Part shown: positions 17,144 to 57,099 of the stretch, in pieces
Position numbering within the stretch: the stretch's first letter is position 1
How the letters are laid out: each line of letters begins with the position of its first letter
From: Patescibacteria group bacterium
Lineage (GTDB): Bacteria; Patescibacteriota; Microgenomatia; UBA8517
DNA: 64,000 nt
NCBI GenBank assembly: GCA_038061225.1
Contig: JBBTZT010000002.1
Location: 12,655-76,654, forward strand
Direction of reading: 5' to 3'
Position numbers and translations under genes: made by a program
Notes under the pieces: generated by a model
Told to the model about the DNA's origin: nothing
What the model saw: only the letters and a program-made list of their open reading frames with translations
Databases searched by the model: none

Positions 17144-17767
17144 ATGGACATAATAAAAACACTTGATTTGATTAGAATATTGTTTGAAGAGTGGGGTTAC
17201 CCAATTATTTTTTTTACAAGTTTAGTTGAAATAACTCCACTGGGTTGGGCTGTTCCTGGTGGGGCAATTTTAGTTATAGCTGGATATCTTTCAAATGGTA
17301 ATCTAAACCTACCCCTTATCTCAGTAATTATTTGGGGTACACTTGGAACTTGGGTTGCGTTTTTACTTGCCTATCTTTTAGGAAGCAAAACTGGTATGTG
17401 GCTAGTTGAAAAACTAAAACAACAAAAAAATGCTAGATTTGCAAAATCGTTGCTTCAAAAAAATGGTGGAGCAATTTTAACAACTTCCATGCTTGCCAAT
17501 TTGACGCGGTTCTGGATAAGTTATATTGCTGGTGTAGACAAATACAGTTTTTTTAAATTTAACCTATACGCATTTGTTGCATCATTAAGTTGGGTATCAC
17601 TAATGACATTAATTGGTTTTTTTGCAGGTTTTGAAAAAGAAAATTTTAAAACAATAGTAAATGGTGTTGGTGTACTGGCTTGGATATTTTTAATTATAGC
17701 TATTTTTATAATTTATAAATCTATTAGAAAAGAATATAAACATTTTGTAGAAGATGAAATCCACTAA
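17144..17767 (+). CDS. DedA/VTT-domain membrane protein
   Basis: GYPIIFFTSLVEITPLGWAVPGGAILVIAGYL matches the DedA signature. Confidence 0.6.
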   Translation: MDIIKTLDLIRILFEEWGYPIIFFTSLVEITPLGWAVPGGAILVIAGYLSNGNLNLPLISVIIWGTLGTWVAFLLAYLLGSKTGMWLVEKLKQQKNARFAKSLLQKNGGAILTTSMLANLTRFWISYIAGVDKYSFFKFNLYAFVASLSWVSLMTLIGFFAGFEKENFKTIVNGVGVLAWIFLIIAIFIIYKSIRKEYKHFVEDEIH

Positions 17768-18821
17768 AGAATCCAGTAAAGTAATTGATGTTGCAATTAA
17801 AGCTTTAGAAAGAGGCCAACTTGTTTTTATGGCAACTGAAACTGTTTACATTGCGGCTGTTGATGCAACAAACGAAAACGCAGTTAAAAAACTTATAGCA
17901 TTTAAAAATCGCCCCTTTGGGAAACCTTTTTCTGTTGGAGTAACTGATATTAAAATGGCAGAGAAATATGTAATATTAAATGAAACTGCAAGAAATTTGT
18001 ATAAAAGATTTCTCCCTGGTCCAGTAACTATTATTTCAACAGGAAAACATAATTTAGCAAAAGGAGTTGAAGCAGAAAATGGAACTTTAGGTATTAGAAT
18101 TCCTGATTATCATTTTTTTCAAGAAGTATGCAAAAAATTAGATAAACCTATAACGGCCACTTCTGCAAATGCTAGTTATCAAAAAAGGCCATATAAACTT
18201 GCTGATATTTTAGACAATATTTCAGAAAAACAAAAAAAATTAGTTGATTTAATGATTGATGCAGGAGAGCTCCCGCACAATGAACCATCAACAGTAATCG
18301 ATACTACTCTTGACGATCAACCTGTAATTTTAAGGCAGGGAGAAATAAAATTAAAAAAGAAAAATGAAGTACTTTCAAGAAGTGAAGAAAATACACAAAA
18401 TATAGCTAAAGAACTCTGGCAAAAATATGATAGTTTTGTGGGTAAACGCGCAATAATCTTTGCCCTAGAGGGTAAAATGGGCGTGGGCAAAACTCAATTT
18501 GTAAAAGGGTTAGCTAAAGCAATGGGAATTAAAGAAGAAGTTACTTCACCATCATATGATTTATTAAATTCATATGATTTATTAACACACATTGACACAT
18601 GGAGGATGTTAAACCCAAATAAAGAATTAGAGGATATAGGTATGAAAGATCTAATTCATGACAAATCTGTTCTTGCAATTGAATGGGCTGATAGAACAGT
18701 TACTGAAATCAGAAAATATTCTGAGGAAGCAATAATTATTTGGATAAAAATTAAGTATCCTTCGGATAACTCAGCACAAGCAAACGAGAACTATAGGTTA
18801 ATTAGTTGGGGAAATATATAA
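17754..18821 (+). CDS. Fused TsaC(YrdC/Sua5)-TsaE(YjeE), for the threonylcarbamoyl-AMP synthase and t6A ATPase components
   Basis: The N-terminal half carries YrdC motifs (ATETVYIAAVDATNENAVKKLIAFKNRP; PGPVTII; TSANASYQ; STVID). The C-terminal half carries the TsaE P-loop (LEGKMGVGKTQFVKG) and SPSYDLLNSY...HIDTWRM. Confidence 0.7.
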   Translation: MKSTKESSKVIDVAIKALERGQLVFMATETVYIAAVDATNENAVKKLIAFKNRPFGKPFSVGVTDIKMAEKYVILNETARNLYKRFLPGPVTIISTGKHNLAKGVEAENGTLGIRIPDYHFFQEVCKKLDKPITATSANASYQKRPYKLADILDNISEKQKKLVDLMIDAGELPHNEPSTVIDTTLDDQPVILRQGEIKLKKKNEVLSRSEENTQNIAKELWQKYDSFVGKRAIIFALEGKMGVGKTQFVKGLAKAMGIKEEVTSPSYDLLNSYDLLTHIDTWRMLNPNKELEDIGMKDLIHDKSVLAIEWADRTVTEIRKYSEEAIIIWIKIKYPSDNSAQANENYRLISWGNI

Positions 18822-26125: not shown

Positions 26126-26554
26126 TCAAAAATTGTTTTCTATTTTCCCGTTGAGGTCTAATTCTTCATTCACCAAATCATCAGCCAAAGTGTTCTTGGT
26201 TCTATAATCCCACTGAAACTTAATTGATAAAGAAGAATTAAGAATTAAGAATTTTATTTGATTAAATAAAATTTTTAATTTTGGGTTTTTAACTTTATAA
26301 AAACCTTTAAGCTGTCTTTCAATAAGTTGAGAGTCAAGATTAATAACGACAGGCGAAAAGTGATTAGTGGTTGGTGATTGGTGAGTAAGCCATTCAATCG
26401 CCATTAACACTGCTGTGTATTCAGCAACGTTGTTTGTCTCCATACCTAAAAACTTACTTTCTTTGTAAATTGTTTTTCCATTTTCAGTCACAACAATGGC
26501 TGAAGCTGCAGGTCCTGGATTACCTCTTGAACCACCATCGCAATATATAATCAT
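26126..26554 (-). CDS. rnhA: Ribonuclease HI
   Basis: IIYCDGGSRGNPGPAASAIVV...ETNNVAEYTAVLMAIEW and a C-terminal D...D. Confidence 0.8.
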   Translation of the reverse strand: MIIYCDGGSRGNPGPAASAIVVTENGKTIYKESKFLGMETNNVAEYTAVLMAIEWLTHQSPTTNHFSPVVINLDSQLIERQLKGFYKVKNPKLKILFNQIKFLILNSSLSIKFQWDYRTKNTLADDLVNEELDLNGKIENNF

Positions 26555-44043: not shown

Positions 44044-45579
44044 CTAATGTTTAGATAGAAGGGATTTGAGTGATTGTAGAAAAGTAGAAGTCTGATAAGC
44101 GGCTTGGTTCTCAGTTCGATAATTTTCATATGTATCAATTCCTTTTGATGCACCGAGCTTACCAAGTGCAACAATAGATCCAACTGTTTCTCCAATTGAG
44201 CTCCCATAAGCAAAAGGCTTTCCTGTTATCAATCCTTGTATAATTTCTACTACTTTAGTAGCTTGACTGAAAATAACAAAACTTACAACAATCCAGATAA
44301 TATTATCTGTATATATTTCACCTAGAAAGGGTATTGGCCATGCATTGTTACCAATAATATCATGTTTTGGGTTTCCGAATATAGTTTTAGCAGTAATACC
44401 TGACATAAAACCTGACGACCCTTGTACCAAGAAAAAGAATGAAAAAAAGAATATCATTCCAAGTAATGGATAAACAGCCAGATATGATATCAGCTTTTTA
44501 AGCCAGCCTCCGAAGGTTGACTTTCCCGTAAAAGCACCCATTAATATTTCAAGTGGTCCGATCGCAATTGTTAGTACAACCATAGCAAAATTTTTAAGAA
44601 TAACATAAATAATTTTTATCGACCAAAATATTATAAATAAAATTGAGAGGAAGGCAAATATAATTAATAGCAAAGAGATTTCAAAGGAGGATGTAAATAA
44701 TGTAAGAAATGCATTATAAAAAAAGGCGACCCAATAGGAATACATTAATCCAAAAGCGCTATGGTTTGTTGTAAGTTCATCAAATAAATCTTTGAAATCG
44801 TGGCCGCTAAAACCACTAGTTATCAATAAACTTGTAATGAGCCCTATCACAACATACATCAAATCAATTGCAAAACCTGCAATTGCGTAAGAAAAAGTAA
44901 TTAATATGGTTGTAAAGATTATATTTGGTAAGGCTGATTGAACTGAAATTACCAATTGAGGAGAAATTTTCATCCTAAACATTATCATAAAAGAAATAAC
45001 TATAACTGCCAAGACAAGTAAAGCGTAACTAATATCCCTAGTGGCCTGCCACAGTTTTTTGATAGAATCTGCACCAGTATTAAATCCAAAACCCTGTGCA
45101 TTGACTTCGGTAACGGGGTTAAATTTATTAATCAGATTTTTTACATAGCCAATACCGGATATTGGATTTTGGCCAATTGCGTTTAAAACTGGATTATTTG
45201 AAGCTATGTTTTGAGTAGAAGTGTCTGTAAGTGCATCGAGTGTTTCCTTAACACTTTTAAGACAATCAAGAGTTGGATGTTTTCCTATAAGACAAGTAGC
45301 TGTTTTAGGGTTTCCTGGAACTAAATTTAACACCATTGAAAATAAAGAATAAAAAATCCACTGTACTTGAGCTGCAGTGTATCTTTCTCCAAAAATTTCA
45401 CTTGGTGGAGAAGATTCATCATCATATACTTTTAAATACCAATCGAAAGGGCCTTGGTTGTACCAAGTGCTTGGGGCGGGGTCTGCTGCAAGGGCAACTG
45501 CAAAAGGCATGGCCATAGAATTAAGAAATAATAATGAAGAGAGAAGAATTAAACTGATTTTTTTGGTTAAATTTGACAT
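44044..45579 (-). CDS. Secreted polytopic membrane protein, possibly VirB6/TrbL-like
   Basis: Signal peptide ending AVALAADPAPSTWYNQG, an extracellular domain of about 150 aa, then 6 or more TM helices. Its N-terminal 70 aa are duplicated at 46157..46378. Confidence 0.4.
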   Translation of the reverse strand: MSNLTKKISLILLSSLLFLNSMAMPFAVALAADPAPSTWYNQGPFDWYLKVYDDESSPPSEIFGERYTAAQVQWIFYSLFSMVLNLVPGNPKTATCLIGKHPTLDCLKSVKETLDALTDTSTQNIASNNPVLNAIGQNPISGIGYVKNLINKFNPVTEVNAQGFGFNTGADSIKKLWQATRDISYALLVLAVIVISFMIMFRMKISPQLVISVQSALPNIIFTTILITFSYAIAGFAIDLMYVVIGLITSLLITSGFSGHDFKDLFDELTTNHSAFGLMYSYWVAFFYNAFLTLFTSSFEISLLLIIFAFLSILFIIFWSIKIIYVILKNFAMVVLTIAIGPLEILMGAFTGKSTFGGWLKKLISYLAVYPLLGMIFFFSFFFLVQGSSGFMSGITAKTIFGNPKHDIIGNNAWPIPFLGEIYTDNIIWIVVSFVIFSQATKVVEIIQGLITGKPFAYGSSIGETVGSIVALGKLGASKGIDTYENYRTENQAAYQTSTFLQSLKSLLSKH

Positions 45580-45617: not shown

Positions 45618-46124
45618 TTAGCCACGACCTTCTTGCTTAGGCAGGAAGGGTAAAATAAAAAATTTAGAAATTTCTTCATTAACTTTCAGAAAATCTCCAT
45701 CATCAATTACAGCTAATTTGTACCAAATTCGTTTGCTACTAAAAACTCTAATCTGCGAAGTCATTGCTGAGACGATTTCGTCTTTGACTGAAATTCGAAT
45801 ATAATATTTGTTATCTTTTAGTTTTGTACTCAATGGTACGCCTAAAAACAATTCTCTGTTGAACTTTTTGACTACTAAAACAGGACGAATAAATATATCG
45901 TTCTTTCCATCTTCTTCAAAACCAACATTTACACCAATTGATGTCCACCATATATCGCGTTCGTTAAATTGTGGAGAAGCAGTAACTTTATTGTTTATTT
46001 CCTTTTTCTTTTCTATCCATTTATCAAAGTTCTTAACATGAATATTATTAGACGAAGTAAGTACAGATTGAGAAGCGATTTTAGCAATTGAATCTTCTAT
46101 CGTTTTATCTATTTTGGCAGGCAT
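45618..46124 (-). CDS. MazF/PemK-family toxin-like protein with a 55-aa N-terminal extension and no cognate antitoxin seen
   Basis: RDIWWTSIGVNVGFEEDGKNDIFIRPVLVVKKFNRELFLGVPLSTKLKDNKYYIRI. This matches the family pattern GDIW.V...G.E..G.RPVLVV...N.....VP.TS. Confidence 0.5.
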   Translation of the reverse strand: MPAKIDKTIEDSIAKIASQSVLTSSNNIHVKNFDKWIEKKKEINNKVTASPQFNERDIWWTSIGVNVGFEEDGKNDIFIRPVLVVKKFNRELFLGVPLSTKLKDNKYYIRISVKDEIVSAMTSQIRVFSSKRIWYKLAVIDDGDFLKVNEEISKFFILPFLPKQEGRG

Positions 46125-49489: not shown

Positions 49490-50261
49490 AGGAGTAGATC
49501 CTAATTCTATTAACAAAAAGTCTATTGCAGTTGTTGGTAGTCGTCAAATGACAAGGTATGGTAGAGATGTGGTTGATAAATTCGTGTGCGATTTTGTTGC
49601 TAATGGAGTAACAACAATCTCTGGTTTTATGTATGGCGTGGATACTGAAGTTGCAAAGAAAACACTTGAATATGGAGGAAAACACATTGCAATTTTTGGC
49701 TGTGGTCTGGACCATATTTATCCACCTGAAAACAAAAAGTTATATGAAGAGATTTTAAAAAGTGGAGGATCAATTGTTTCTGAGTATGAAGATTCGGCAA
49801 AACCAAGTATCTGGAAATTCCCACAAAGAAACAAAATTGTAGCTAGCCTCGCCTCACTTGGGGTTCTTGTTATTGAGGCGGGTAGCGGGAGTGGATCACT
49901 TGTAACTGCCAAAATTGCAAAAAAAATGGGCAAGAAAGTTTGGGCAGTACCTGGGCCTATAAATTCAAGAGTTTCTGTTGGATGTAATGAATTAATAAAA
50001 TCAGGCGACGCCCAAATGGCCATTTGTGTGAGAGATATTATTAAGATTAAAACTACAGAAATTCAGAACTCAAGAATTCCAGATAATCTAAATACAGAAG
50101 AACAAAAAATATTTAAAATACTTCAACTAGAGCCTATGGAAATTGATGAGATTGCACAGAAATTAGAAGAAAATGTTGTAGAAGTTGGATCTACACTATC
50201 AATAATGGGGATTAAAGGGTTAGTTACGGAGAGTGGCGGAAAATATTTTTTAGTACGGTAG
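49470..50261 (+). CDS. dprA: DNA processing protein DprA/Smf (Rossmann core + C-terminal wH, no SAM domain)
   Basis: IAVVGSRQMTRYGRDVV...TISGFMYGVDTEVAKKTLEYGGKHIAIFGCGLDHIYPPEN. Located downstream of comM and yraN. Confidence 0.8.
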   Translation: MKILHFRGVDPNSINKKSIAVVGSRQMTRYGRDVVDKFVCDFVANGVTTISGFMYGVDTEVAKKTLEYGGKHIAIFGCGLDHIYPPENKKLYEEILKSGGSIVSEYEDSAKPSIWKFPQRNKIVASLASLGVLVIEAGSGSGSLVTAKIAKKMGKKVWAVPGPINSRVSVGCNELIKSGDAQMAICVRDIIKIKTTEIQNSRIPDNLNTEEQKIFKILQLEPMEIDEIAQKLEENVVEVGSTLSIMGIKGLVTESGGKYFLVR

Positions 50262-52706
50262 TGTTGGTGAGCTTGGACAAAAAATTGGAGCCTTTGAAGC
50301 ATACGCAGCTCTCCAGTCAGTGTTATTAAGATTAGTAATAAGTTGTGAGGTATTGAATCCTGATCCGAAAAGTGGTGGTGGATATACACCACCAGGGTCC
50401 AATACTGTAATTGGCCACAGTACATAACCAGGTAAATATCCATACTCTTGAAGTGTCGCCTCATCTGTTTTGCCGGCAGCACAATCGTTTCTGAGTGTGT
50501 TAACCATGCAGTCAATTTTCTCATCGATTGATTGAACTTGTGAAACATTGCATCCAAAATGTGAACTTGATGATCCATCTGCCATATCTGTCATCAAACC
50601 ACCATTTTCATTAAGTCCGATTCCAATAGCCCAAAAAGGGTTAAGAGATTTGCCGTTACATTTCGTAGACGCTGCTTTTGCGATTACTTTGTTGTAAACA
50701 TTTTCATCAAGAAGCCATTGTTTACATGCTCCAGTCTCAGGTTCTTCTGTTGGTTTACAATTTCCATCAGCAATTGGTTCGCCGTAACCTTTAGGGCGAA
50801 GGGCAGTTTGAATTCCTTTTAAAAAGTATTCATAGACTGAACCTATGTGTGGGAAAGTTAATTCTGGTTTATCACCACCCCCATCTTCTGGAATTTTTTT
50901 AACACCAAATTCTAAAGACCCACCTCTTGGGGTTTCACTTTCCTCAGCATTATAAGTAACCCCAGTAACTGTTGGAATATCTGCAATACAACTAACTGGC
51001 GCACCTTCCTCGACTTTTGGAAATATTTTTCTAAAAGTACTTCCAGAGTCAGCTACAGTAGTTGAAAATATTTCATCTGCATTTGGAACTTTAACATCTG
51101 TTGGAACAACTATTGTAACTTCTGCGTTACAATGATGGGAATATGTAGTTTCCCAGGAACCTCCTTTTTTAGGGGGAAGGTTAGGAACCCAGATGGTTGT
51201 TTTAGTAACTTTACACAAAACTTGATCAATATTGTAGGTCACTTTTGGAATGACCATTTCTTTAGTGTCTCCAGGTGATCTATCTCCTGGGAATAAATTA
51301 TCACCTTTGTTTGTCCTGACATTTACTGCGCTACAGTCGAGACCGTTTACTTTTGGAAGAGTTTCTGTTGTTTCTGGAACCTTTTCACTTTTATATCCTT
51401 GTGGCAGATAGGTTTTATTTAATAATTCTGACGATTCTTTAACTTCCTCCGTATGTGCAAAATAAAGAGGAGCGTTTTTCTGATTTGCCTCGTCATATTT
51501 TTCACCTGAAATTACTGTTGTTCCGATTGAAGGTTTAAACTGAACATCTAGAATTCTCTCCGCACCTTTTTTGTCAGTAGTATTTGAAAGGGGAATATAT
51601 TGATATAAATCCGCCCATTTATTTGGTACGAATGGATTATCTATACACAAAAGAAGGTCAACAAAAGGAATTTTCGCGCAAGAATCACCTCGCCATTCGT
51701 TATATGCTTTTTGATATGCCTGTTGGCTTTCAAATGGGTCTCCATTTTTATCTGCCCAAGGAAGTGGCGGAGTCCTTTTGTTCCATATATCAGTTCCAAT
51801 TCTGTTAAACAATCCATTAAAATCTGACAAATCTCCTCCGTACCACCCCTGATCGCCCACTATACCTATACTTTTATCTATTAATCTAAATTTTTCATCT
51901 CCTCCATAGCAAGGGACAGGCGTAATTTTTCCGATATTAAGAAGGCCTCCAAACCAACCAAAGTTGCTATCTCCACAAACCACAATTTGATTATGATTTT
52001 GAGGTTCGGTAGTGTCACCAACTTCCTCATCGACATAGTTTGTGATTGCCGAAGCAGAGGCAATGGTGGAAATTCTTTGAGCATCTTGAATCACAGATGG
52101 TAAAAGTTTTTGGATTGGGCCTGAGAAATTAACAACTCGACTATCTGTATTTTCTTCATATTCAGCACGATTGTTTACTCCACTTAAATACCAACTTGCA
52201 TATTCATTTACTTTCTGTGCATCAGAAAATTCATCATTTTTTTTATCATAATTTTTTACTTGTTCAGTGTTCCCTAAAATTGGAAACATGGAATCTGTAA
52301 GCTCAACATAAAGATTATGAGGATCAATATAACCATCTTTGGGTTTACACCAGAAATCACTTGTATTTTTTCCCAAATCACATTGACTAGTTAAGTCAAA
52401 AGATTCAATAAATTTTAATTCATTGCTACAAAACAAAGCTTTATTGGCATCTCCACAGGCAGCGGCTTGATAAGGACGAAGGGAGTGAAATTCAGGATCC
52501 TTTACATCGTTACAAGGAAAACCCACTCTTGGAAAAGCCTCAACCTCGGCTTTTGCCGACGGAATTAAGAGTGAATAATTAATTATTAATAATAAAAACA
52601 AAGAGAAAGAAAACAGAATGAATTTAGACAATATTTTCATTTGACATTTAATATTATGGTTTAAAGATTGTAAAGTTTGTAACATCAGCACCTGTAAAGG
52701 TTCCAA
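50250..52706 (-). CDS. Large Cys-rich secreted protein (about 800 aa), terminal gene of the pilin-array operon. The probable start is MKILSKFILF at about 52640.
   Basis: Signal/TM anchor FILFSFSLFLLLIINYSLLIPSAKA. More than 30 Cys, no TM after the anchor, and no catalytic motif recognised. Confidence 0.45.
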   Translation of the reverse strand: MEPLQVLMLQTLQSLNHNIKCQMKILSKFILFSFSLFLLLIINYSLLIPSAKAEVEAFPRVGFPCNDVKDPEFHSLRPYQAAACGDANKALFCSNELKFIESFDLTSQCDLGKNTSDFWCKPKDGYIDPHNLYVELTDSMFPILGNTEQVKNYDKKNDEFSDAQKVNEYASWYLSGVNNRAEYEENTDSRVVNFSGPIQKLLPSVIQDAQRISTIASASAITNYVDEEVGDTTEPQNHNQIVVCGDSNFGWFGGLLNIGKITPVPCYGGDEKFRLIDKSIGIVGDQGWYGGDLSDFNGLFNRIGTDIWNKRTPPLPWADKNGDPFESQQAYQKAYNEWRGDSCAKIPFVDLLLCIDNPFVPNKWADLYQYIPLSNTTDKKGAERILDVQFKPSIGTTVISGEKYDEANQKNAPLYFAHTEEVKESSELLNKTYLPQGYKSEKVPETTETLPKVNGLDCSAVNVRTNKGDNLFPGDRSPGDTKEMVIPKVTYNIDQVLCKVTKTTIWVPNLPPKKGGSWETTYSHHCNAEVTIVVPTDVKVPNADEIFSTTVADSGSTFRKIFPKVEEGAPVSCIADIPTVTGVTYNAEESETPRGGSLEFGVKKIPEDGGGDKPELTFPHIGSVYEYFLKGIQTALRPKGYGEPIADGNCKPTEEPETGACKQWLLDENVYNKVIAKAASTKCNGKSLNPFWAIGIGLNENGGLMTDMADGSSSSHFGCNVSQVQSIDEKIDCMVNTLRNDCAAGKTDEATLQEYGYLPGYVLWPITVLDPGGVYPPPLFGSGFNTSQLITNLNNTDWRAAYASKAPIFCPSSPTLPY

Positions 52707-52938
52707 TAATAAGTAGAATCAAATATGAGAAGGCTAATAGAACAAAACCACCAATTGCATAGGTTAAGGTGTTTTTTGCCCCTTCTACTGCTTTTGGATC
52801 ACCTCCAGATGTTAAATATTTAAAACCAGAAGATAAAAGCGTTAAAAAAAGACCAATACCACCAAGAGCTAGAAGTGCTTTAACTACATTTTCAAAAACG
52901 TCTTCAAGTTGTGATAATTCTGCAGGTGCTGCTGCCAT
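52654..52938 (-). CDS. Pilin-like small two-TM protein, paralog 8 (T4SS/VirB2-like pilin candidate)
   Basis: TM1, then TSGGDPKAVEGAKNTLTYAIGGFVLLAFSYLILLIIG, then TM2. Confidence 0.5.
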   Translation of the reverse strand: MAAAPAELSQLEDVFENVVKALLALGGIGLFLTLLSSGFKYLTSGGDPKAVEGAKNTLTYAIGGFVLLAFSYLILLIIGTFTGADVTNFTIFKP

Positions 52939-52987
52939 ATAAAAATAAGTTTAGCTTATTCAAGAAAATTGAGCAAGAGAAGATTGG

Positions 52988-53326
52988 TTAACCAGCTTTT
53001 GGAAGATCTAACTTTAATATATTAACCCCAAAGAATGTATTTATTAGTTGAATTATTGCCCAAGCTGAAAAGACTATAACCAAACCAACAAGAGCTGCAG
53101 TAATTTGATTTCTTGCACCTTCTGTATGAGCTTTATCTCCACCCGAGAGTATCCATTTAATGCCTCCAATGACTAGAATAAAAAAGAATGCCAAACCTGC
53201 AATCACTAAAACTAATCTAATAAAACCAGACACCATACCTTCGATCGTAAGATCGGTAGCGCCTTGAAAAGCACTGCCTAAATTTTTATCTAACTCAATT
53301 GCCGCTAAATAAAAAACATCGTTCAT
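52988..53326 (-). CDS. Pilin-like small two-TM protein, paralog 7
   Basis: LSGGDKAHTEGARNQITAALVGLVIVFSAWAIIQLINTFFGVNIL. Confidence 0.5.
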   Translation of the reverse strand: MNDVFYLAAIELDKNLGSAFQGATDLTIEGMVSGFIRLVLVIAGLAFFFILVIGGIKWILSGGDKAHTEGARNQITAALVGLVIVFSAWAIIQLINTFFGVNILKLDLPKAG

Positions 53327-53334
53327 ATTAGGTA

Positions 53335-53712
53335 TTATTGAATAACCAATGGGCCTATGTCAATAGACAAAATATCTATCCCAAAGAAAGTTTCAATCAG
53401 CTTAACAATTGCAAAAGTTCCAATAAGTAATACAAAACCTACAATTGCATTTGTAATTCTACCCTTTGCTGACTCAAGACCTGCTTTATCTCCACCAGAC
53501 AATATCCAACTGATTGCCCCCCAAAGAAGCATGAAGAAAAAAGCCAAAGCACCAATTACAAATAAAAGACCAATTACCCTGCTGATTAAATCGCCAAAAA
53601 AGAATTCTGGTAAATTTAGGAGCATCTGATTAAGCGTGTTTCCGATGGCAGGGTTTGAAATTTTTCCATCTCCTGTAGTTCCTGCTCCAGCTAATAGTGT
53701 ATTTATTTGCAT
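53335..53712 (-). CDS. Pilin-like small two-TM protein, paralog 6
   Basis: LSGGDKAGLESAKGRITNAIVGFVLLIGTFAIVKLIETFFGIDIL. Confidence 0.5.
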   Translation of the reverse strand: MQINTLLAGAGTTGDGKISNPAIGNTLNQMLLNLPEFFFGDLISRVIGLLFVIGALAFFFMLLWGAISWILSGGDKAGLESAKGRITNAIVGFVLLIGTFAIVKLIETFFGIDILSIDIGPLVIQ

Positions 53713-53713
53713 A

Positions 53714-54205
53714 TTAATTTAGTGATTTAAAAAGCGTTGCAATGTCTAGGATATTTGGCAAACCTAATAATTTCCCGATAAAGCTTAAAATAAAGAGAGA
53801 TGAAACAAGCACTACTAGTCCAATTACTCCATTTGTAATCTTTTTTCTTGCCCCCTCTAGAGCTTGTTTGTCTCCACTTGAAGAAATGATACTAACAGCG
53901 CCTGTCACAATTATAAATACCATCCAAATAATTCCAATTATTGTAATAAGACCAACCGCTGAGGAAAGAAATGTTGCAAAAACTGATATACCACTTTGAC
54001 CCTGTTCTAATCCAAGTGGTCCAAAGCCCTTATACCCCTCTCCTTCAAATAATTTAATTTGTGCGATTTTGTTCATGGTGTAGGTATTGATGGTTGTAAT
54101 AAAAATAATGGATTTTTGAATATCAATTGCCCTATTATAGCTGCAAGTACAAAAGATCCTGCAGAAAAAGCAAGCCCCATTAAAGTTTGATAAATTTTTG
54201 CCCAT
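53714..54205 (-). CDS. Pilin-like small two-TM protein, paralog 5. The likely start is MNKIAQIK at about 54076.
   Basis: SSSGDKQALEGARKKITNGVIGLVVLVSSLFILSFIGKLLGL. Confidence 0.45.
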   Translation of the reverse strand: MGKNLSNFNGACFFCRIFCTCSYNRAIDIQKSIIFITTINTYTMNKIAQIKLFEGEGYKGFGPLGLEQGQSGISVFATFLSSAVGLITIIGIIWMVFIIVTGAVSIISSSGDKQALEGARKKITNGVIGLVVLVSSLFILSFIGKLLGLPNILDIATLFKSLN

Positions 54206-54489
54206 GCACTTGCAACCTTTTTACTATCATCTCCTGCAGACATAAAAGCATAACCAGCAAGAACAAGATTAAACAAAGCATAAATACCTGCACCAACTAC
54301 TAATGCTCGTAGTCCAAACTGAATTAATTTTCCAAAAGCAGGACCGGCTTCAGCTCCATAAATACTATTTAGTTTATCAGGAACTTCTACAGTTCCAAAT
54401 GGATTTTGCGCAAGTAAATTCATATATAAATCTATTATACTAATAATTGTCACCAACACAAGCACTTGACAGACCTCATATAATCCCAT
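54073..54489 (-). CDS. Pilin-like small two-TM protein, paralog 4. The likely start is MNLLAQNPFG at about 54423.
   Basis: MSAGDDSKKVASAWAKIYQTLMGLAFSAGSFVLAAIIGQLIF. Confidence 0.45.
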   Translation of the reverse strand: MGLYEVCQVLVLVTIISIIDLYMNLLAQNPFGTVEVPDKLNSIYGAEAGPAFGKLIQFGLRALVVGAGIYALFNLVLAGYAFMSAGDDSKKVASAWAKIYQTLMGLAFSAGSFVLAAIIGQLIFKNPLFLLQPSIPTP

Positions 54490-55562
54490 ATAATCTCATA
54501 TATATGAATGACAAGTTCAACATAAGGTTTAATAATGTATCACACGAGATATGGCTAAAAATTACACAAATAGAAAGTTTAAAAGGTAAATGGGATGGAA
54601 GTACCAAACTTAGCCCACAAATTCTTGGAAGATTAAAAAAATCCGTATTGGTTACCTCAACAGGTGCTTCTACTCGTATTGAAGGTTCAAAACTAACAGA
54701 TGAAACAGTTGAAAAAATGATGAAAGGGATTTCAATCCAAAAATTTAGTAATCGAGATGAACAAGAAGTAATGGGATATTATGAACTTCTTCAAAATATT
54801 TTTAATTCTTGGGAGTCAATAACATTTAGCGAAAGTGCAATATTACATTTTCATAAAGAATTGTTGAAATATGTTGGAAAAGACGAAACCCATAGAGGTG
54901 AGTATAAGAAAAAAGAAAATGCAGTACATATGGTTAATGAAAAAGGGAAATCAGTGGGAATTCTTTTTGAAACTACCAAGGCATATTTAACTCCAAAGGA
55001 AATGTATGAGCTCATTGATTGGACAAAAACAGCATTAAATCAAAATACCTATCATCCACTTTTAATTATTTCAAATTTTATAGTTGAATTTTTAAATATT
55101 CACCCTTTTTCTGACGGAAACGGCAGATTATCAAGAATTTTAACTAATTTATTGCTATTAAAAGCGGGTTATTTATATATACCATATGTATCACACGAAA
55201 AATTAATTGAAGATAATAAACCAGAATATTATTTAGCCTTACGCCGTAGCCAAAATACATTAAGAACCAAAAAACCAGATGTTTCGTTTTGGACCAATTT
55301 CTTTTTAGATATATTATTTACTCAATCTGAAATTGCCATAAAACAGTTAACAGAAACAAATATTGAATCAGTGTTATCACCAAAACAATTATTGGTTTGG
55401 GATTATTTAGAAAAAAATGATGAAGTGACTCCCATGGAAATTTCTAAAAAAGCTGGAGTTACTAGACCTACAGTTACTCAAGTTCTTGTTAAATTATTAG
55501 ATCTAAAAATGATTGAGAAAATTGGCCAAGGATCAGCAACAAGATATCGAAAACTAAAGTGA
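54447..55562 (+). CDS. fic: Fic-family protein (AMPylase-type) with C-terminal winged helix. The likely start is MNDKFNIRF at about 54504.
   Basis: Canonical Fic motif HPFSDGNGRLSRIL. A C-terminal wH runs QLLVWDYLEKNDEVTPMEISKKAGVTRPTVTQVLVKL. Confidence 0.8.
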   Translation: MSPTQALDRPHIIPYNLIYMNDKFNIRFNNVSHEIWLKITQIESLKGKWDGSTKLSPQILGRLKKSVLVTSTGASTRIEGSKLTDETVEKMMKGISIQKFSNRDEQEVMGYYELLQNIFNSWESITFSESAILHFHKELLKYVGKDETHRGEYKKKENAVHMVNEKGKSVGILFETTKAYLTPKEMYELIDWTKTALNQNTYHPLLIISNFIVEFLNIHPFSDGNGRLSRILTNLLLLKAGYLYIPYVSHEKLIEDNKPEYYLALRRSQNTLRTKKPDVSFWTNFFLDILFTQSEIAIKQLTETNIESVLSPKQLLVWDYLEKNDEVTPMEISKKAGVTRPTVTQVLVKLLDLKMIEKIGQGSATRYRKLK

Positions 55563-55874
55563 AATAAGTGATAAGCCTGTGATTGTTTCTATGAGTTTTA
55601 CTATCCAATATGCAGAAAATACAACTATGAAGCCAATTAGCGCTGAAGTTGCAGCCTTTTTACCCTTTTCAACTGTTTGGGGATCTGATTTTCCAGCACC
55701 CGCAATCATTCCAATTCCACCCCCAATTAAAAGAAAAAGTAAAAATATTCCTGCTATTGAAATAGCACCTGTAATAATTGCAGAAACATACCTACTTATA
55801 CTATCAACTCTGTATAAATCTCCACGTGTATCACCTAAGAAAGTTGTACCAATGTTAATTGCTAATTTATTCAT
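55554..55874 (-). CDS. Pilin-like small two-TM protein, paralog 3
   Basis: GAGKSDPQTVEKGKKAATSALIGFIVVFSAYWIVKLIETITGLSL. Confidence 0.5.
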   Translation of the reverse strand: MNKLAINIGTTFLGDTRGDLYRVDSISRYVSAIITGAISIAGIFLLFLLIGGGIGMIAGAGKSDPQTVEKGKKAATSALIGFIVVFSAYWIVKLIETITGLSLISL

Positions 55875-55876
55875 AT

Positions 55877-56191
55877 TTAATTAAATAAAATTGTCTCTAT
55901 ACCCAAAAATTTCATTATAAGCATAACTATCCAAAATGATACAAATAAAATTGATATTCCAATTACAGATGTTGTAAGTTTAGCTTGTGCTGCCTGCATT
56001 ACTTTTGGATCTCCTGTAGACGTCATCATTTTAAAACCTGATGTAATAATATTTAAAAGCAGAATTATTCCTGCAATTCCAAAGATATATGGAAGAGCTA
56101 AATTGATAAAACCCGATGGTTCAAGTAAAACGTTCCAAGCAGGCAACCCTGCGTTATTTTGTATTGAAGTAAAAGTTGCCGTGTCAAACAT
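55877..56191 (-). CDS. Pilin-like small two-TM protein, paralog 2
   Basis: TSTGDPKVMQAAQAKLTTSVIGISILFVSFWIVMLIMKFLGIETIL. Confidence 0.5.
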   Translation of the reverse strand: MFDTATFTSIQNNAGLPAWNVLLEPSGFINLALPYIFGIAGIILLLNIITSGFKMMTSTGDPKVMQAAQAKLTTSVIGISILFVSFWIVMLIMKFLGIETILFN

Positions 56192-56193
56192 AT

Positions 56194-56574
56194 TTATAAT
56201 TTATCCAATCCCAGTATATCAATTCCTATGAATTTTAGTATAAAGACACTAAAAATTAACATAATTAAACCTGAAATGGCTGATGTTAGTAGTTCTTGCC
56301 CTGCTTTTAATCTGTCTGGAACTCCTTGAGAAGTCATTATCATAAAACTAGCATAGACAATCAATAAAAATGCAATTCCACCACCAACCCCAACAGCCCA
56401 ACCCAATATCCACCCCATGAATTGATTTGTATCAGAAACTGGTATACAGCCAATAGCTGTATCAATTCCACAATCTTCAAGCTGAGCAAATACTGGTTTG
56501 ATTGAATAACTAATTAAAGTTAAAAATAAAAATATTGCAGGGATTATTTTTTTCATAGCGTAGCTGGATTTCAT
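56194..56574 (-). CDS. Pilin-like small protein, paralog 1, with a clear signal peptide
   Basis: Signal peptide MKKIIPAIFLFLTLISYSIKPVFAQ, then two TMs flanking TSQGVPDRLKAGQELLTSAISGL. C-terminal KFIGIDILGL. Confidence 0.5.
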   Translation of the reverse strand: MKSSYAMKKIIPAIFLFLTLISYSIKPVFAQLEDCGIDTAIGCIPVSDTNQFMGWILGWAVGVGGGIAFLLIVYASFMIMTSQGVPDRLKAGQELLTSAISGLIMLIFSVFILKFIGIDILGLDKL

Positions 56575-56597: not shown

Positions 56598-56879
56598 TTG
56601 TTAAACTTATACATCATGCAAACAAAATTATTAAATTATAGAGTTATTGTTGAGCCAGAAACCTATCCAAATGGTGATAAAGTTTATAATGCCTATTGTC
56701 CAACACTTGGGATAACAGATTACGGAGACACAATAGAAGAAGCGTTGGAAAGTTTAAAAGATGGTATTGGACTAGCTGTTGAAATGTTATCTAAAGAGAA
56801 AGCAGAAATTCCATCAGACGATTTAAATACCCAGATTGTTACTCAAACACAAATTCAATATCCGATAGCTTTTGCCTAA
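56598..56879 (+). CDS. hicB: HicB-family antitoxin
   Basis: YRVIVEPETYPNGDKVYNAYCPTLGITDYGDTIEEALESLKDGI matches the HicB/UPF0150 N-terminal fold. Confidence 0.65.
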   Translation: MLNLYIMQTKLLNYRVIVEPETYPNGDKVYNAYCPTLGITDYGDTIEEALESLKDGIGLAVEMLSKEKAEIPSDDLNTQIVTQTQIQYPIAFA

Positions 56880-57099
56880 GAAAATGCCCAAACTGCCAAG
56901 AAATATAAAACCGAAAATATTACTTAAAATTCTTAAATCAAAAGGTTTTGTCGAAGTTGGGGGAAAAGGGTCTCATGTTCGATTAAAGCATCAAGATGGT
57001 AGATGGACACAAGTTGCCATTCATCCCAAGCCAATTCCACAAGGAACTTTGAGAAAAATCTTGAGTCAAGTTAAACTTCAGATAGAGGATGTAAAATGA
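56872..57099 (+). CDS. hicA: HicA-family mRNA interferase toxin
   Basis: LLKILKSKGFVEVGGKGSHVRLKHQDGRWTQVAIHP matches the HicA signature. It overlaps hicB by 8 bp. Confidence 0.7.
   Translation: MPKKMPKLPRNIKPKILLKILKSKGFVEVGGKGSHVRLKHQDGRWTQVAIHPKPIPQGTLRKILSQVKLQIEDVK

Follow-up and report, generated by a model that had tools for sequence, protein, structure and literature searches.

Tandem arrays of VirB2-like pilin genes have been described in the Patescibacteria, 441 arrays of 2-11 genes in all, mostly from Microgenomatia and Saccharimonadia, and have been suggested to provide host-range or antigenic versatility (Quinonero-Coronel et al. 2025, PMC12102498). In Southlakia, pilin genes lie within an essential type IV secretion system (T4SS) cluster (Wang et al. 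2023, Cell, PMC10633639; reviewed in PMC12857230). For this system, no Patescibacterium is known to display a pilus or filament, and its function has been called 'completely unknown' (PMC11665869). The array described here, from an ultrasmall member of the Patescibacteria of the Woesebacteria/Microgenomatia type, lies in a 64-kb window (the whole stretch of DNA that was analysed; Table 1). It is of a kind already published, to which it adds fixed, non-interchangeable pilin types across dozens of genomes. Its eight products, of the PF18895 'T4SS pilin' type, are probably non-redundant subunits of one extracytoplasmic structure assembled by a VirB4-driven machine.

Table 1. The pilin-like array and its neighbourhood in the window.
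Feature	Position	Strand	Description
SpoIID-family gene	57096..58811	+	family annotated as cell-wall hydrolases
hicBA insertion	56598-57099		separates p1 from the SpoIID-family gene here
p1	56194..56574	-	pilin-like hairpin, cleavable signal peptide (cut between …KPVFA and QLED), short ectodomain; PF18895 23.2 bits, slightly below gathering threshold 26.6
p2	55877..56191	-	pilin-like hairpin, 104 aa; PF18895 24.9 bits; NF045849 E = 3.5e-8
p3	55554..55874	-	pilin-like hairpin, 106 aa; PF18895 40.5 bits
fic insertion	54424..55553	+	1130 bp, lineage-specific
fic CDS	54504-55562	+	class II Fic fused to winged-HTH domain
fic promoter	54466..54494	+	perfect sigma-70 consensus TTGACA, 17 nt, TATAAT (12/12 matches)
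p4	54073..54423	-	divergent pilin-like hairpin, 116 aa; no Pfam match; 119.9 bits with local family HMM
p5	53714..54076	-	pilin-like hairpin, 120 aa; PF18895 31.8 bits
p6	53335..53712	-	pilin-like hairpin, 125 aa; PF18895 31.1 bits
p7	52988..53326	-	pilin-like hairpin, 112 aa; PF18895 34.8 bits; paralog with AlphaFold2 model
Internal promoter (predicted)	52948..52976	-	in 49-nt p7-p8 spacer; conserved (spacer alignment)
p8	52654..52938	-	shortest pilin-like hairpin, 94 aa; top PF18895 score, 42.8 bits
Cys-rich secreted protein	50250..52640	-	796 aa, signal peptide, 20 Cys; begins 13 nt past p8
511-aa protein	44044..45579	-	signal peptide, ~7 TM segments (hydropathy)
Type IV secretion core cluster	32294..39154	-	abuts dnaN; monoderm-type; Pfam, also on orthologues
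PrgI/VirB3-like protein	38120-39154	-	with CarboxypepD_reg domain
TraC-like protein	37437-38123	-
VirB4-like ATPase	35573-37405	-	91% identical to orthologue in related locus L001
891-aa protein	32895-35570	-	4-6 central TM segments (hydropathy)
197-aa protein	32294-32887	-	single TM segment (hydropathy)

A first-pass annotation had proposed eight paralogous minus-strand open reading frames (ORFs) from 56574 to 52654. All are present in the ORF list at those coordinates, and all align across a core of about 80 residues consisting of a first transmembrane segment (TM1), a loop and TM2, with 15-51% identity between cores. The size range then given, 94-163 aa, stands at its lower end (p8) but not for p4 and p5, the starts of which have been corrected: p4 begins with the ATG at 54423 and is not 138 aa long (its orthologues are 112-123 aa, and the start is homologous in the junction alignment), and p5, previously 163 aa, has its start codon at 54076, where the sequence ATGA also contains the stop of p4. 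Junctions in the array are overlapping or 1-8 nt apart, implying co-expression, and no further copy was found in the window with a local family HMM.

PF18895 (T4SS_pilin), a family of small VirB2-like proteins known from CPR/Patescibacteria (PMC12102498), matches seven of the eight paralogs (E = 5.5e-11 to 7e-5; five of the eight above the gathering threshold), in agreement with the family proposed at first pass, and occurs in all 120 matches listed among 2140 homologues of p7. NF045849, a pilin-like family of Mycoplasma ICEs, matches all eight at E <= 1 and six at E <= 0.001 (best 3.5e-8), but no score exceeds 33 bits, so that all remain short of the 40 bits required for membership of the family. 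Judged by the PF18895 matches and by the orthologues that each gene has at its own array position in over 30 further genomes, the resemblance among the paralogs is not due to chance. The eight proteins are homologous hairpins in which an SGGD(P/K)xx(L/V)E(G/A)A(K/R)xxIT turn joins TM1 to TM2. The loop motif claimed for the array recurs as the consensus S-G-G-D-(P/K)-x-x-(L/V)-E-(G/A)-A-(R/K/Q)-x-x-I-T in 256 family members, whereas the claimed tail motif is present in about half of the paralogs and missing from the rest. The hairpins have acidic N-terminal tails and basic loops; conservation is highest in the loop and lowest in the N- and C-terminal tails, the conserved parts being the loop and the transmembrane helices. 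The AlphaFold2 model of p7 is a helical hairpin (helices 28-60 and 65-99, core pLDDT >90). A fold search with the hairpin returned generic helical hairpins only, so the label 'pilin' derives from what the family is called, from the context and from structure-based annotation by others. A hydrophobic N-terminus and a VirB2 topology had been assumed for every copy, and a signal peptide noted in p1; such a topology with a signal peptide applies to p1, of which the N-terminal signal peptide is confirmed as the sole case among the eight, but not to p2-p8, in which TM1 is the first hydrophobic segment and follows an acidic tail of 14-40 residues. That seven of the eight lack a signal peptide, unlike classical T4SS pilins, is a counterpoint to their interpretation as pilins.

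The eight genes are distinct orthologue groups that keep a constant order under purifying selection (dN/dS 0.08-0.29 over all eight), with position-matched orthologues of every gene in more than 30 genomes. Exactly eight array genes are present in 31 related loci, best hits fall at the identical array position in 7925 of 7936 cases (99.9%), a distinct conserved signature marks each position, and position-specific HMMs read even the most divergent loci in order from 1 to 8; gene order shows no turnover, and local duplications are rare. The divergent p4 is itself strongly conserved across genomes, its same-position orthologues averaging 66% identity. Eight divergent copies, thought unusual in the first-pass annotation, are thus the norm in this lineage, arrays of 2-11 genes having already been published (PMC12102498), and the same results speak against the antigenic or functional diversification then envisaged, in the sense of variation. 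According to that interpretation, the array would be a pool of interchangeable filament-subunit versions used alternately on different hosts, for antigenic variation or host-range switching, in keeping with the high divergence within the array, the variability of the N- and C-terminal tails, and the precedent of the Bartonella and Anaplasma VirB2 paralog arrays (cited in PMC12102498). Such a pool is disfavoured and quite improbable, given that positional orthology holds among genomes in which the large Cys-rich protein has diverged to ~30% identity, that order is stable, that every gene is constrained and carries the signature of its position, and that the tight junctions imply co-expression. 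Eight-gene loci, positional orthology and purifying selection instead favour a single T4SS-associated structure in which the eight subunits are not redundant with one another.

Natural fusions of 2-17 pilin modules exist, one eight-module protein among them, and in a Curtissbacteria-type locus a fusion of three modules and five unfused genes likewise add up to eight; these fusions speak for co-assembly of the modules. Long covalent fusions of this sort nevertheless fit poorly with a filament of the classical kind, made of single extracted subunits. They would suit a hetero-oligomer embedded in the cytoplasmic membrane, in which eight hairpins (16 helices) of fixed stoichiometry form a ring or channel-lining bundle belonging to a T4SS translocon or an envelope-spanning stalk, and so would the fixed number and order of the genes, the signal peptides missing from seven products, the conservation of loop and transmembrane helices, and the general absence of pili from Gram-positive T4SSs (PMC12102498). 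This architecture is nevertheless unlikely: some pilin modules of relatives carry a PKD domain fused at the C-terminus and others a signal peptide and then a dockerin-type domain fused at the N-terminus, which points to surface display; copy number varies from 2 to 11 genes (PMC12102498) and from 2 to 17 modules; and the helices of the p7 model, at 33-35 residues, are longer than a bilayer requires.

If the products are instead subunits of one extracytoplasmic structure, as preferred here, each hairpin would be inserted with its termini outside and its basic loop in the cytoplasm, and a VirB4-driven machine would assemble the subunits into a tubular or pilus-like structure in which the eight types occupy non-redundant positions or roles. 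The first gene product, p1, may be the subunit that initiates the structure or forms its tip, on account of its signal peptide, its variable ectodomain (the N-terminal region differs among orthologues, which are 115-260 aa long) and its core, the most conserved of the eight (92-94% identical to related loci L001 and L005). At the other end of the array, p8 and the large Cys-rich protein are served by their own conserved promoter, predicted from a -35 box TTGCTC (52976-52971) and a -10 box TAAACT (52953-52948) separated by 17 nt and followed after 9 nt by the p8 ATG. This pattern is found in 21 of 25 related p7-p8 spacers, compared with 0.64 expected from shuffles, and the boxes are 17 nt apart in 20 of the 21. 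The best candidate for the abundant (major), most highly expressed subunit is p8.

The protein that ends the operon is Cys-rich and secreted as originally described, but its length is 796 aa, from a start at 52640, rather than 818 aa. Its sequence and that of NCBI protein AAB625_00370 agree at every residue (100% identity), and many Cys, Trp and Pro residues are invariant in its family. No Pfam domain was detected in its 447 homologues, no known family or fold matches it, and its predicted model is mediocre. With the array directly upstream of its gene in ~30 loci, it is by gene context a conserved partner of the array, and may act as its extracellular partner, perhaps as the tip or adhesin proposed at first pass.

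The plus-strand fic gene reported to split the array indeed lies between p3 and p4. Its product has Fic (2.9e-15) and MarR_2 (6e-7) Pfam domains; HPFSDGNGRLSR is its Fic motif, and STRIEG its inhibitory motif. The insertion, with a GC content of 0.294 versus 0.31-0.36 in the flanks, is missing from the closest relatives (L050, L051) and from all other arrays compared. The fic ATG is 10 nt downstream of the sigma-70 consensus promoter, and on the minus strand a perfect TATAAT (54439-54434) precedes the ATG of p4 by 10 nt. Comparison of these loci marks fic as a recent lineage-specific insertion that carried in its own predicted promoter.

Adjacency to comM, yraN and dprA was confirmed, as was conserved synteny of the array with a T4SS cluster that contains VirB4. 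Relatives keep the order SpoIID-family gene, array, ~800-aa Cys-rich protein, polytopic membrane protein, and PrgI-like/TraC-like/VirB4-like core near dnaN/dnaA. The polytopic protein, which directly follows the large Cys-rich protein in relatives, corresponds here to the 511-aa protein, a possible VirB6-like channel subunit that has no Pfam match. The array lies outside the core cluster, 13 kb from it in the window and 6-13 kb from virB4 in the lineage, with unrelated genes between, a point against the preferred reading. Neither a relaxase nor a coupling protein was found among the window ORFs scanned, and so the system probably mediates host-cell contact or exchange, not conjugation. The divergent SpoIID-family neighbour of p1, conserved in all related loci, could be taken to mean that the hairpins are small two-TM envelope proteins, holin-like or associated with the cell wall or division, that work with it and are unconnected with type IV secretion. 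In keeping with this, several genes separate the array from the VirB4 cluster, locus L053, of the Curtissbacteria type, showed no such cluster within 10 kb, and the search for VirB2 homology was negative. Such a reading is extremely improbable in view of the Saccharimonadia, where pilin genes are inside the T4SS cluster (PMC10633639), of the 1135 assemblies with a pilin gene near virB4 (PMC12102498), of the weak but repeated matches to the Mycoplasma ICE conjugal-transfer family, and of the holin families, none of which matched any of the eight paralogs in Pfam at E <= 1.

Compared with VirB2/TrbC of MPF_T systems (Agrobacterium T-pilus, PF04956), the array proteins are likewise small, with two hydrophobic helices, a short basic turn, a topology that would place termini outside and loop inside, and genes near VirB3-/VirB4-type genes. 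Homology to this family was not detectable (no Pfam match at E <= 1; hhalign probability 3.3%), the loop region aligns ~7 residues longer, a leader peptide is found in p1 only, there are eight different subunits rather than one, and the host is single-membraned; no gene here was recognised as a homologue of VirB5 or VirB1. The Mbov_0395-family (NF045849) protein of Mycoplasma ICEs, also a two-TM protein (~80 aa) of a monoderm conjugation system, is encoded by one gene per element and not by an array. Type IV pili and type II secretion pseudopili are built from homologous, non-interchangeable, co-encoded subunits, one abundant and others for initiation or the tip. The conserved, separate orthologue groups of the array would be analogous to such sets of major and minor pilins, which differ in their unrelated fold, an N-terminal helix with a globular head, and in an unrelated assembly machine; no prepilin peptidase motif was found in the array proteins. 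Bartonella and Anaplasma loci (cited in PMC12102498) also carry several tandem divergent VirB2-type genes, but those are read as antigenic variation, whereas position-specific orthologues and purifying selection characterize the array. The published arrays of Patescibacteria share PF18895, tandem divergent paralogs (mean identity 25%, maximum 54%), an occasional interrupting non-pilin gene, enrichment in Microgenomatia, and a link to a monoderm-type T4SS near dnaA/dnaN without relaxase; in Southlakia six pilin genes are inside the T4SS cluster, whereas the present array stands apart from the cluster as a block of its own. For those arrays gene counts were given; the fixed order of eight types, the ~800-aa Cys-rich partner, the p8 promoter and the multi-module fusions were not, and these are newly added here, together with purifying selection and the recent fic insertion.

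The minus strand between 56574 and 52654 carries eight consecutive ORFs, designated p1 to p8 with p1 first, which have one plus-strand ORF among them and are followed by a long minus-strand ORF encoding a Cys-rich secreted protein. MAFFT alignments reveal a common core of about 80 residues in p1-p8, made up of a hydrophobic helix, a polar turn and a second hydrophobic helix, with core identities of 15-51% between paralogs, and an HMM built from the eight detects no ninth copy outside the array in the 64-kb window. The array of eight minus-strand genes with a shared architecture proposed in the first-pass annotation is borne out by the ORF list, the alignments and the HMM, as are its eight gene calls; the starts of p4, p5 and the large protein were corrected from the DNA. 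The p4 start is moved to 54423, where the homologous start of its orthologues (112-123 aa) aligns; the p5 start becomes 54076, overlapping the p4 stop codon in the sequence ATGA; and the large protein starts at 52640, which yields a product of 796 aa. With these starts, the successive junctions measure 2, 2, 1130, -4, 1, 8, 49 and 13 nt, the 1130-nt junction being the site of a fic gene. The N-terminal signal peptide noted earlier on p1 is retained and occurs on p1 only among the eight, the tails of p2-p8 being polar and acidic (14-40 residues), so that the long cleavable leader ahead of a two-helix mature pilin, a trait of TrbC/VirB2, is not found as a feature of the array.

Matches to PF18895 (T4SS_pilin) exceed the gathering threshold of 26.6 bits for p3 (40.5 bits), p5 (31.8 bits), p6 (31.1 bits), p7 (34.8 bits) and p8 (42.8 bits), fall just below it for p1 (23.2 bits) and p2 (24.9 bits), and are absent for p4. 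Because all eight can be aligned to one another and to the PF18895 family, the array is assigned to this family, with p4 as a divergent member. These matches of seven of the eight paralogs uphold the earlier proposal of a T4SS-pilin-like family of CPR genomes, and the pilin interpretation as a whole is supported in part; homology to the classical TrbC/VirB2 pilins is not found at the level of sequence, there being no Pfam match of any paralog to TrbC/VirB2 (PF04956) at E <= 1 and a probability of 3.3% when a 256-sequence pilin profile was compared by hhalign with eight MPF_T VirB2/TrbC proteins (sequences taken from plasmid records, the VirB2 query being confirmed by tblastn at 99.2% identity). 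Holins, named in the first-pass annotation as an example of an unrelated family, and other families with two transmembrane segments likewise gave no Pfam matches at E <= 1. A search of PDB sequences with pilin profile A3 returned chance-level matches only (E ~0.3). The Mbov_0395 pilin-like conjugal transfer protein of the Mycoplasma ICE (NF045849, curated cut-off 40 bits) is best matched by p2 (33.0 bits, E = 3.5e-8), with scores of 9.6-25.9 bits for the other paralogs; judged by these profile scores, it represents a family related to the array proteins, without their belonging to it. Precomputed Pfam annotation flags four to five of the eight array genes per genome (related loci L001, L002, L050 and L051) and never the position-4 type, hence surveys based on HMMs or Pfam undercount array sizes, and cryptic pilins such as p4 may be labelled in Pfam-based surveys as "non-pilin" interruptions.

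Exact look-ups of the large protein in its 818-aa and 796-aa forms gave no record; by way of its homologues, context look-ups and a scan in which each species was represented by one genome yielded more than 40 related loci, most of them labelled Candidatus Woesebacteria or Microgenomates. Exactly eight pilin-HMM matches stand directly upstream of the large protein in the 31 loci with enough upstream sequence, so the array is conserved in relatives, the first-pass annotation having taken the lack of such conservation as evidence against its reading. That annotation also entertained antigenic diversification of a filament subunit, and antigenic or host-range versatility is suggested for such arrays by Quinonero-Coronel et al. 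2025 (PMC12102498), an idea repeated in a 2025 review that speculates on a pilus (PMC12857230). An all-against-all BLASTP comparison of 256 proteins (the 31 loci and the window) argues against diversification of this sort: of the 7936 best hits that lie in a different genome, 7925 fall at the same array position, and the paralogs of the window are 50-72% identical to their same-position orthologues, as against 15-51% among themselves. A conserved signature distinguishes each position, and position-specific HMMs order even the most divergent loci from 1 to 8, with occasional local duplications such as the three p1-type genes of L040. Against the two closest relatives, every paralog has a dN/dS of 0.08-0.29 and the large protein a similar 0.16-0.18, with dS near saturation. 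Judged from these comparisons, the eight genes are fixed orthologue groups under purifying selection in Woesebacteria, a fixed-position pattern opposite to that expected of an antigenic-variation pool.

The gene that interrupts the array encodes a fusion of a Fic domain (PF02661, 57.3 bits) with a winged-helix domain; the motif HPFSDGNGRLSR at residue 200 fits HxFx(D/E)GN(G/K)RxxR, and an N-terminal inhibitory motif, STRIEG, is found at residue 56, in agreement with the antisense fic gene recognized earlier. The inserted segment (54424-55553) has a lower G+C content (0.294), and the arrays of the closest relatives, whose large proteins are 77-80% identical, are uninterrupted. Within the insertion, fic is preceded by a perfect TTGACA-17-TATAAT promoter, and on the other strand, 10 nt ahead of the p4 ATG, lies a perfect TATAAT that, from its position, could restore expression of p4-p8. 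Terminal repeats or a target-site duplication were sought at the flanks of the insertion, where there are only short, chance-like AT-rich matches. A perfect inverted repeat of 11 nt (ATTCATATATA / TATATATGAAT, 54418-54509) extends across the oppositely oriented start codons of p4 and fic and encloses a 70-nt region with both -10 boxes; it may be due to chance in AT-rich DNA. Array insertions in four other genomes (L010, L013, L015 and L020), two of them at the same p3/p4 junction, include AAA_14/DUF4143-type ATPases, a HEPN protein and a toxin-antitoxin pair of AbiEii- or nucleotidyltransferase type. The locus gathers small accessory and toxin-type genes, represented in the window by hicBA, MazF/PemK and fic.

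Apart from the fic insertion of the window, the p7-p8 spacer (median 49 nt) is the sole long junction within the array, and it is conserved. It contains a predicted promoter of the form TTGCTC, 17 nt, TA(G/A)A(A/C)T, 6-10 nt, ATG of p8, a pattern found in 21 of the 25 spacers from related loci, where 0.64 would be expected from shuffled sequences. The conserved position of this motif 6-10 nt before the p8 ATG implies a separately promoted, nearly leaderless sub-operon that would comprise p8 and the large protein. A TTG-17-TAnnnT motif is not conserved upstream of p1, and intrinsic terminators in the array do not exceed chance. The 796-aa form of the large protein matches an NCBI protein from a Patescibacteria MAG at 100% identity; it has no match in Pfam or in a PDB sequence search, none of its 447 homologues has a Pfam domain, and Foldseek, run with a mediocre model (pLDDT 66.6), finds nothing in the PDB at E <= 0.001. 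The protein is an orphan, a conserved secreted partner of the array. A lysozyme or transglycosylase (VirB1-like) function of its C-terminal helical region, considered on account of an "LNExGG" motif, was rejected as lacking support from Pfam, PDB or Foldseek.

On the same strand as the array, a monoderm-type type IV secretion core (32.3-39.2 kb; 32294-39154), which directly adjoins the replication-origin genes dnaN and dnaA, comprises a PrgI/VirB3-like protein, a 228-aa protein whose orthologues are TraC-like in Pfam, a VirB4-like ATPase (35573-37405; P-loop_TraG, AAA_10) and an 891-aa protein with central transmembrane segments. Such a position of the core is already reported for Microgenomatia, and the arrays described in PMC12102498 accompany T4SS genes near dnaA/dnaN. 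That study defines an array as at least two PF18895- or PF04956-positive genes in tandem or one non-pilin gene apart, located no more than about 20 coding sequences from a virB4 of the Patescibacteria clade, accompanied by further components of MPF_FATA type and associated with neither a relaxase nor a coupling protein; here there are eight genes with one non-pilin interruption (fic, p3/p4), and the putative VirB4, assigned by Pfam, lies about 14 ORFs from p8 and is adjoined by the PrgI-like and TraC-like genes. Neither a relaxase nor a VirD4/TraG-type coupling protein was found by Pfam among the scanned ORFs of the 64-kb window, and housekeeping genes surround the core and the array; the locus is chromosomal and not an integrative element. 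Its conserved order is smpB ... SpoIID (divergent), p1-p8, the large protein, a polytopic membrane protein of 510-560 aa, ..., PrgI-like, TraC-like, VirB4-like and a protein of about 900 aa. The comM, yraN and dprA genes adjoin the large protein as reported earlier, and some relatives (L005, L050) also have a dprA-yraN-comM block between it and the membrane protein.

The membrane protein of the window (511 aa, 44044-45579), the counterpart of which directly follows the large protein in relatives, has a signal peptide, about seven transmembrane segments and no Pfam match; it may represent the VirB6-like subunit that is "missing" from Microgenomatia. The SpoIID-family gene (57096-58811) is an invariant divergent neighbour of p1 in loci of both the Woesebacteria and the Curtissbacteria type. 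The SpoIID family is annotated as cell-wall hydrolases, and this member might open the wall in the manner of VirB1, a function reportedly missing from these systems. Other features of the window are a fusion of Sua5/YrdC with TsaE in one ORF (17754-18821), a small RNase H / RVT_3-like ORF (26126-26554) and a tmRNA gene directly beside smpB (61308-62123).

Features of the window, and fusion proteins encoded in related loci (L numbers) or found as database proteins with pilin modules (P numbers)
Feature	Window coordinates	Strand	Related loci or proteins	Remark
dnaA	29660-31030
dnaN	31188-32297			directly adjoins the core
MazF/PemK toxin	45618-46124
Predicted sigma-70-type promoter	52939-52987	minus	spacers of L001-L036	p7-p8 spacer
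p4	54073-54423	minus
fic CDS	54504-55562
hicBA pair	56598-57099			between SpoIID and p1
Tandem module fusions			P0241-P0389; L052 9925-12387; L053 6204-7451
Extracytoplasmic-domain fusions / PKD-repeat protein			L052 13152-14303 and 14325-16481; P0390

The AlphaFold2 model of p7 is a confident hairpin (helices 28-60 and 65-99, core pLDDT above 90), a fold too simple to discriminate a specific match to solved T4SS pilins. Family-wide, the N-terminal tails have a net acidic and the loops a net basic character. In every orthologue group, conservation is highest in the loop (58-87% pairwise identity) and lowest in the two tails. Elsewhere in the phylum a pilin module is fused to a C-terminal PKD domain, and another is preceded by a signal peptide and an N-terminal dockerin-type calcium-binding domain; from these fusions to extracytoplasmic domains, we infer that both termini of the hairpin face outward. 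Downstream of the pilins of L052, the place of the Cys-rich protein in Woesebacteria is taken by a 718-aa PKD-repeat protein. Among 1.84 billion representative proteins, a profile search returned 82,787 clusters at E <= 0.001, with top matches that are single polypeptides of 2-17 tandem pilin modules, including one 820-aa protein with eight. The Curtissbacteria-type locus (L053) retains the synteny of SpoIID and the array, and has a three-module fusion that opens with a p1-type module, then five single genes, the last of p8 type, for eight modules in total. Such covalent linkage argues that different modules are neighbours in the assembled structure.

A large part of uncultivated bacterial diversity consists of Patescibacteria. 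The function of their T4SS has been described as completely unknown (PMC11665869), and in the one species tested, Southlakia, the T4SS is essential and its gene cluster includes a series of essential predicted pilins (Wang et al. 2023, PMC10633639). Since Gram-positive-type T4SSs are normally without pilins, pilin arrays are the oddest feature of the patescibacterial T4SS. According to PMC12102498, T4SSs of Gram-positive bacteria generally lack pili; that study reports 441 arrays of 2-11 VirB2-like genes each, which are 25% identical on average and 54% at most, with enrichment in Microgenomatia and Saccharimonadia. The array as such is of this published kind, and the fixed eight-type detail is added here: the word "ortholog" is absent from that paper, and its accessible text was not found to mention the large partner protein, the promoter or the fusions. 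The added detail speaks for a multi-subunit machine rather than a variant pool.

Together, the eight fixed orthologue groups, the internal promoter with its orphan partner and the covalent fusions shift the hypothesis from a variable surface antigen to a part of a multi-subunit machine. Tentatively, and with low confidence, the eight hairpins may be obligatory, position-specific blocks of a single hetero-oligomeric T4SS structure of fixed stoichiometry, with p8 and the protein of about 800 aa as a separately promoted module. Such a hetero-oligomer would take the form either of a ring of 16 helices or of a heteropolymeric pilus or conduit, possibly assembled colinearly with gene order. If so, it would be the first T4SS "pilus" in which numerous distinct VirB2-like subunits are combined, and in Microgenomatia it could serve as the conduit for contact with the host. 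Testable hypotheses follow from the fixed set of eight types, from the orphan partner conserved beside it and from the naturally occurring fusions, and p1, p8 and the 796-aa protein are concrete targets of structural modelling and of genetics in cultivable relatives. In the pili formed by VirB2 and TraA pilins, the lumen is lined by the loop and the surface carries the termini; the termini-out topology proposed for the array proteins would resemble that of VirB2 and TraA and, by analogy, their pilus packing as well.
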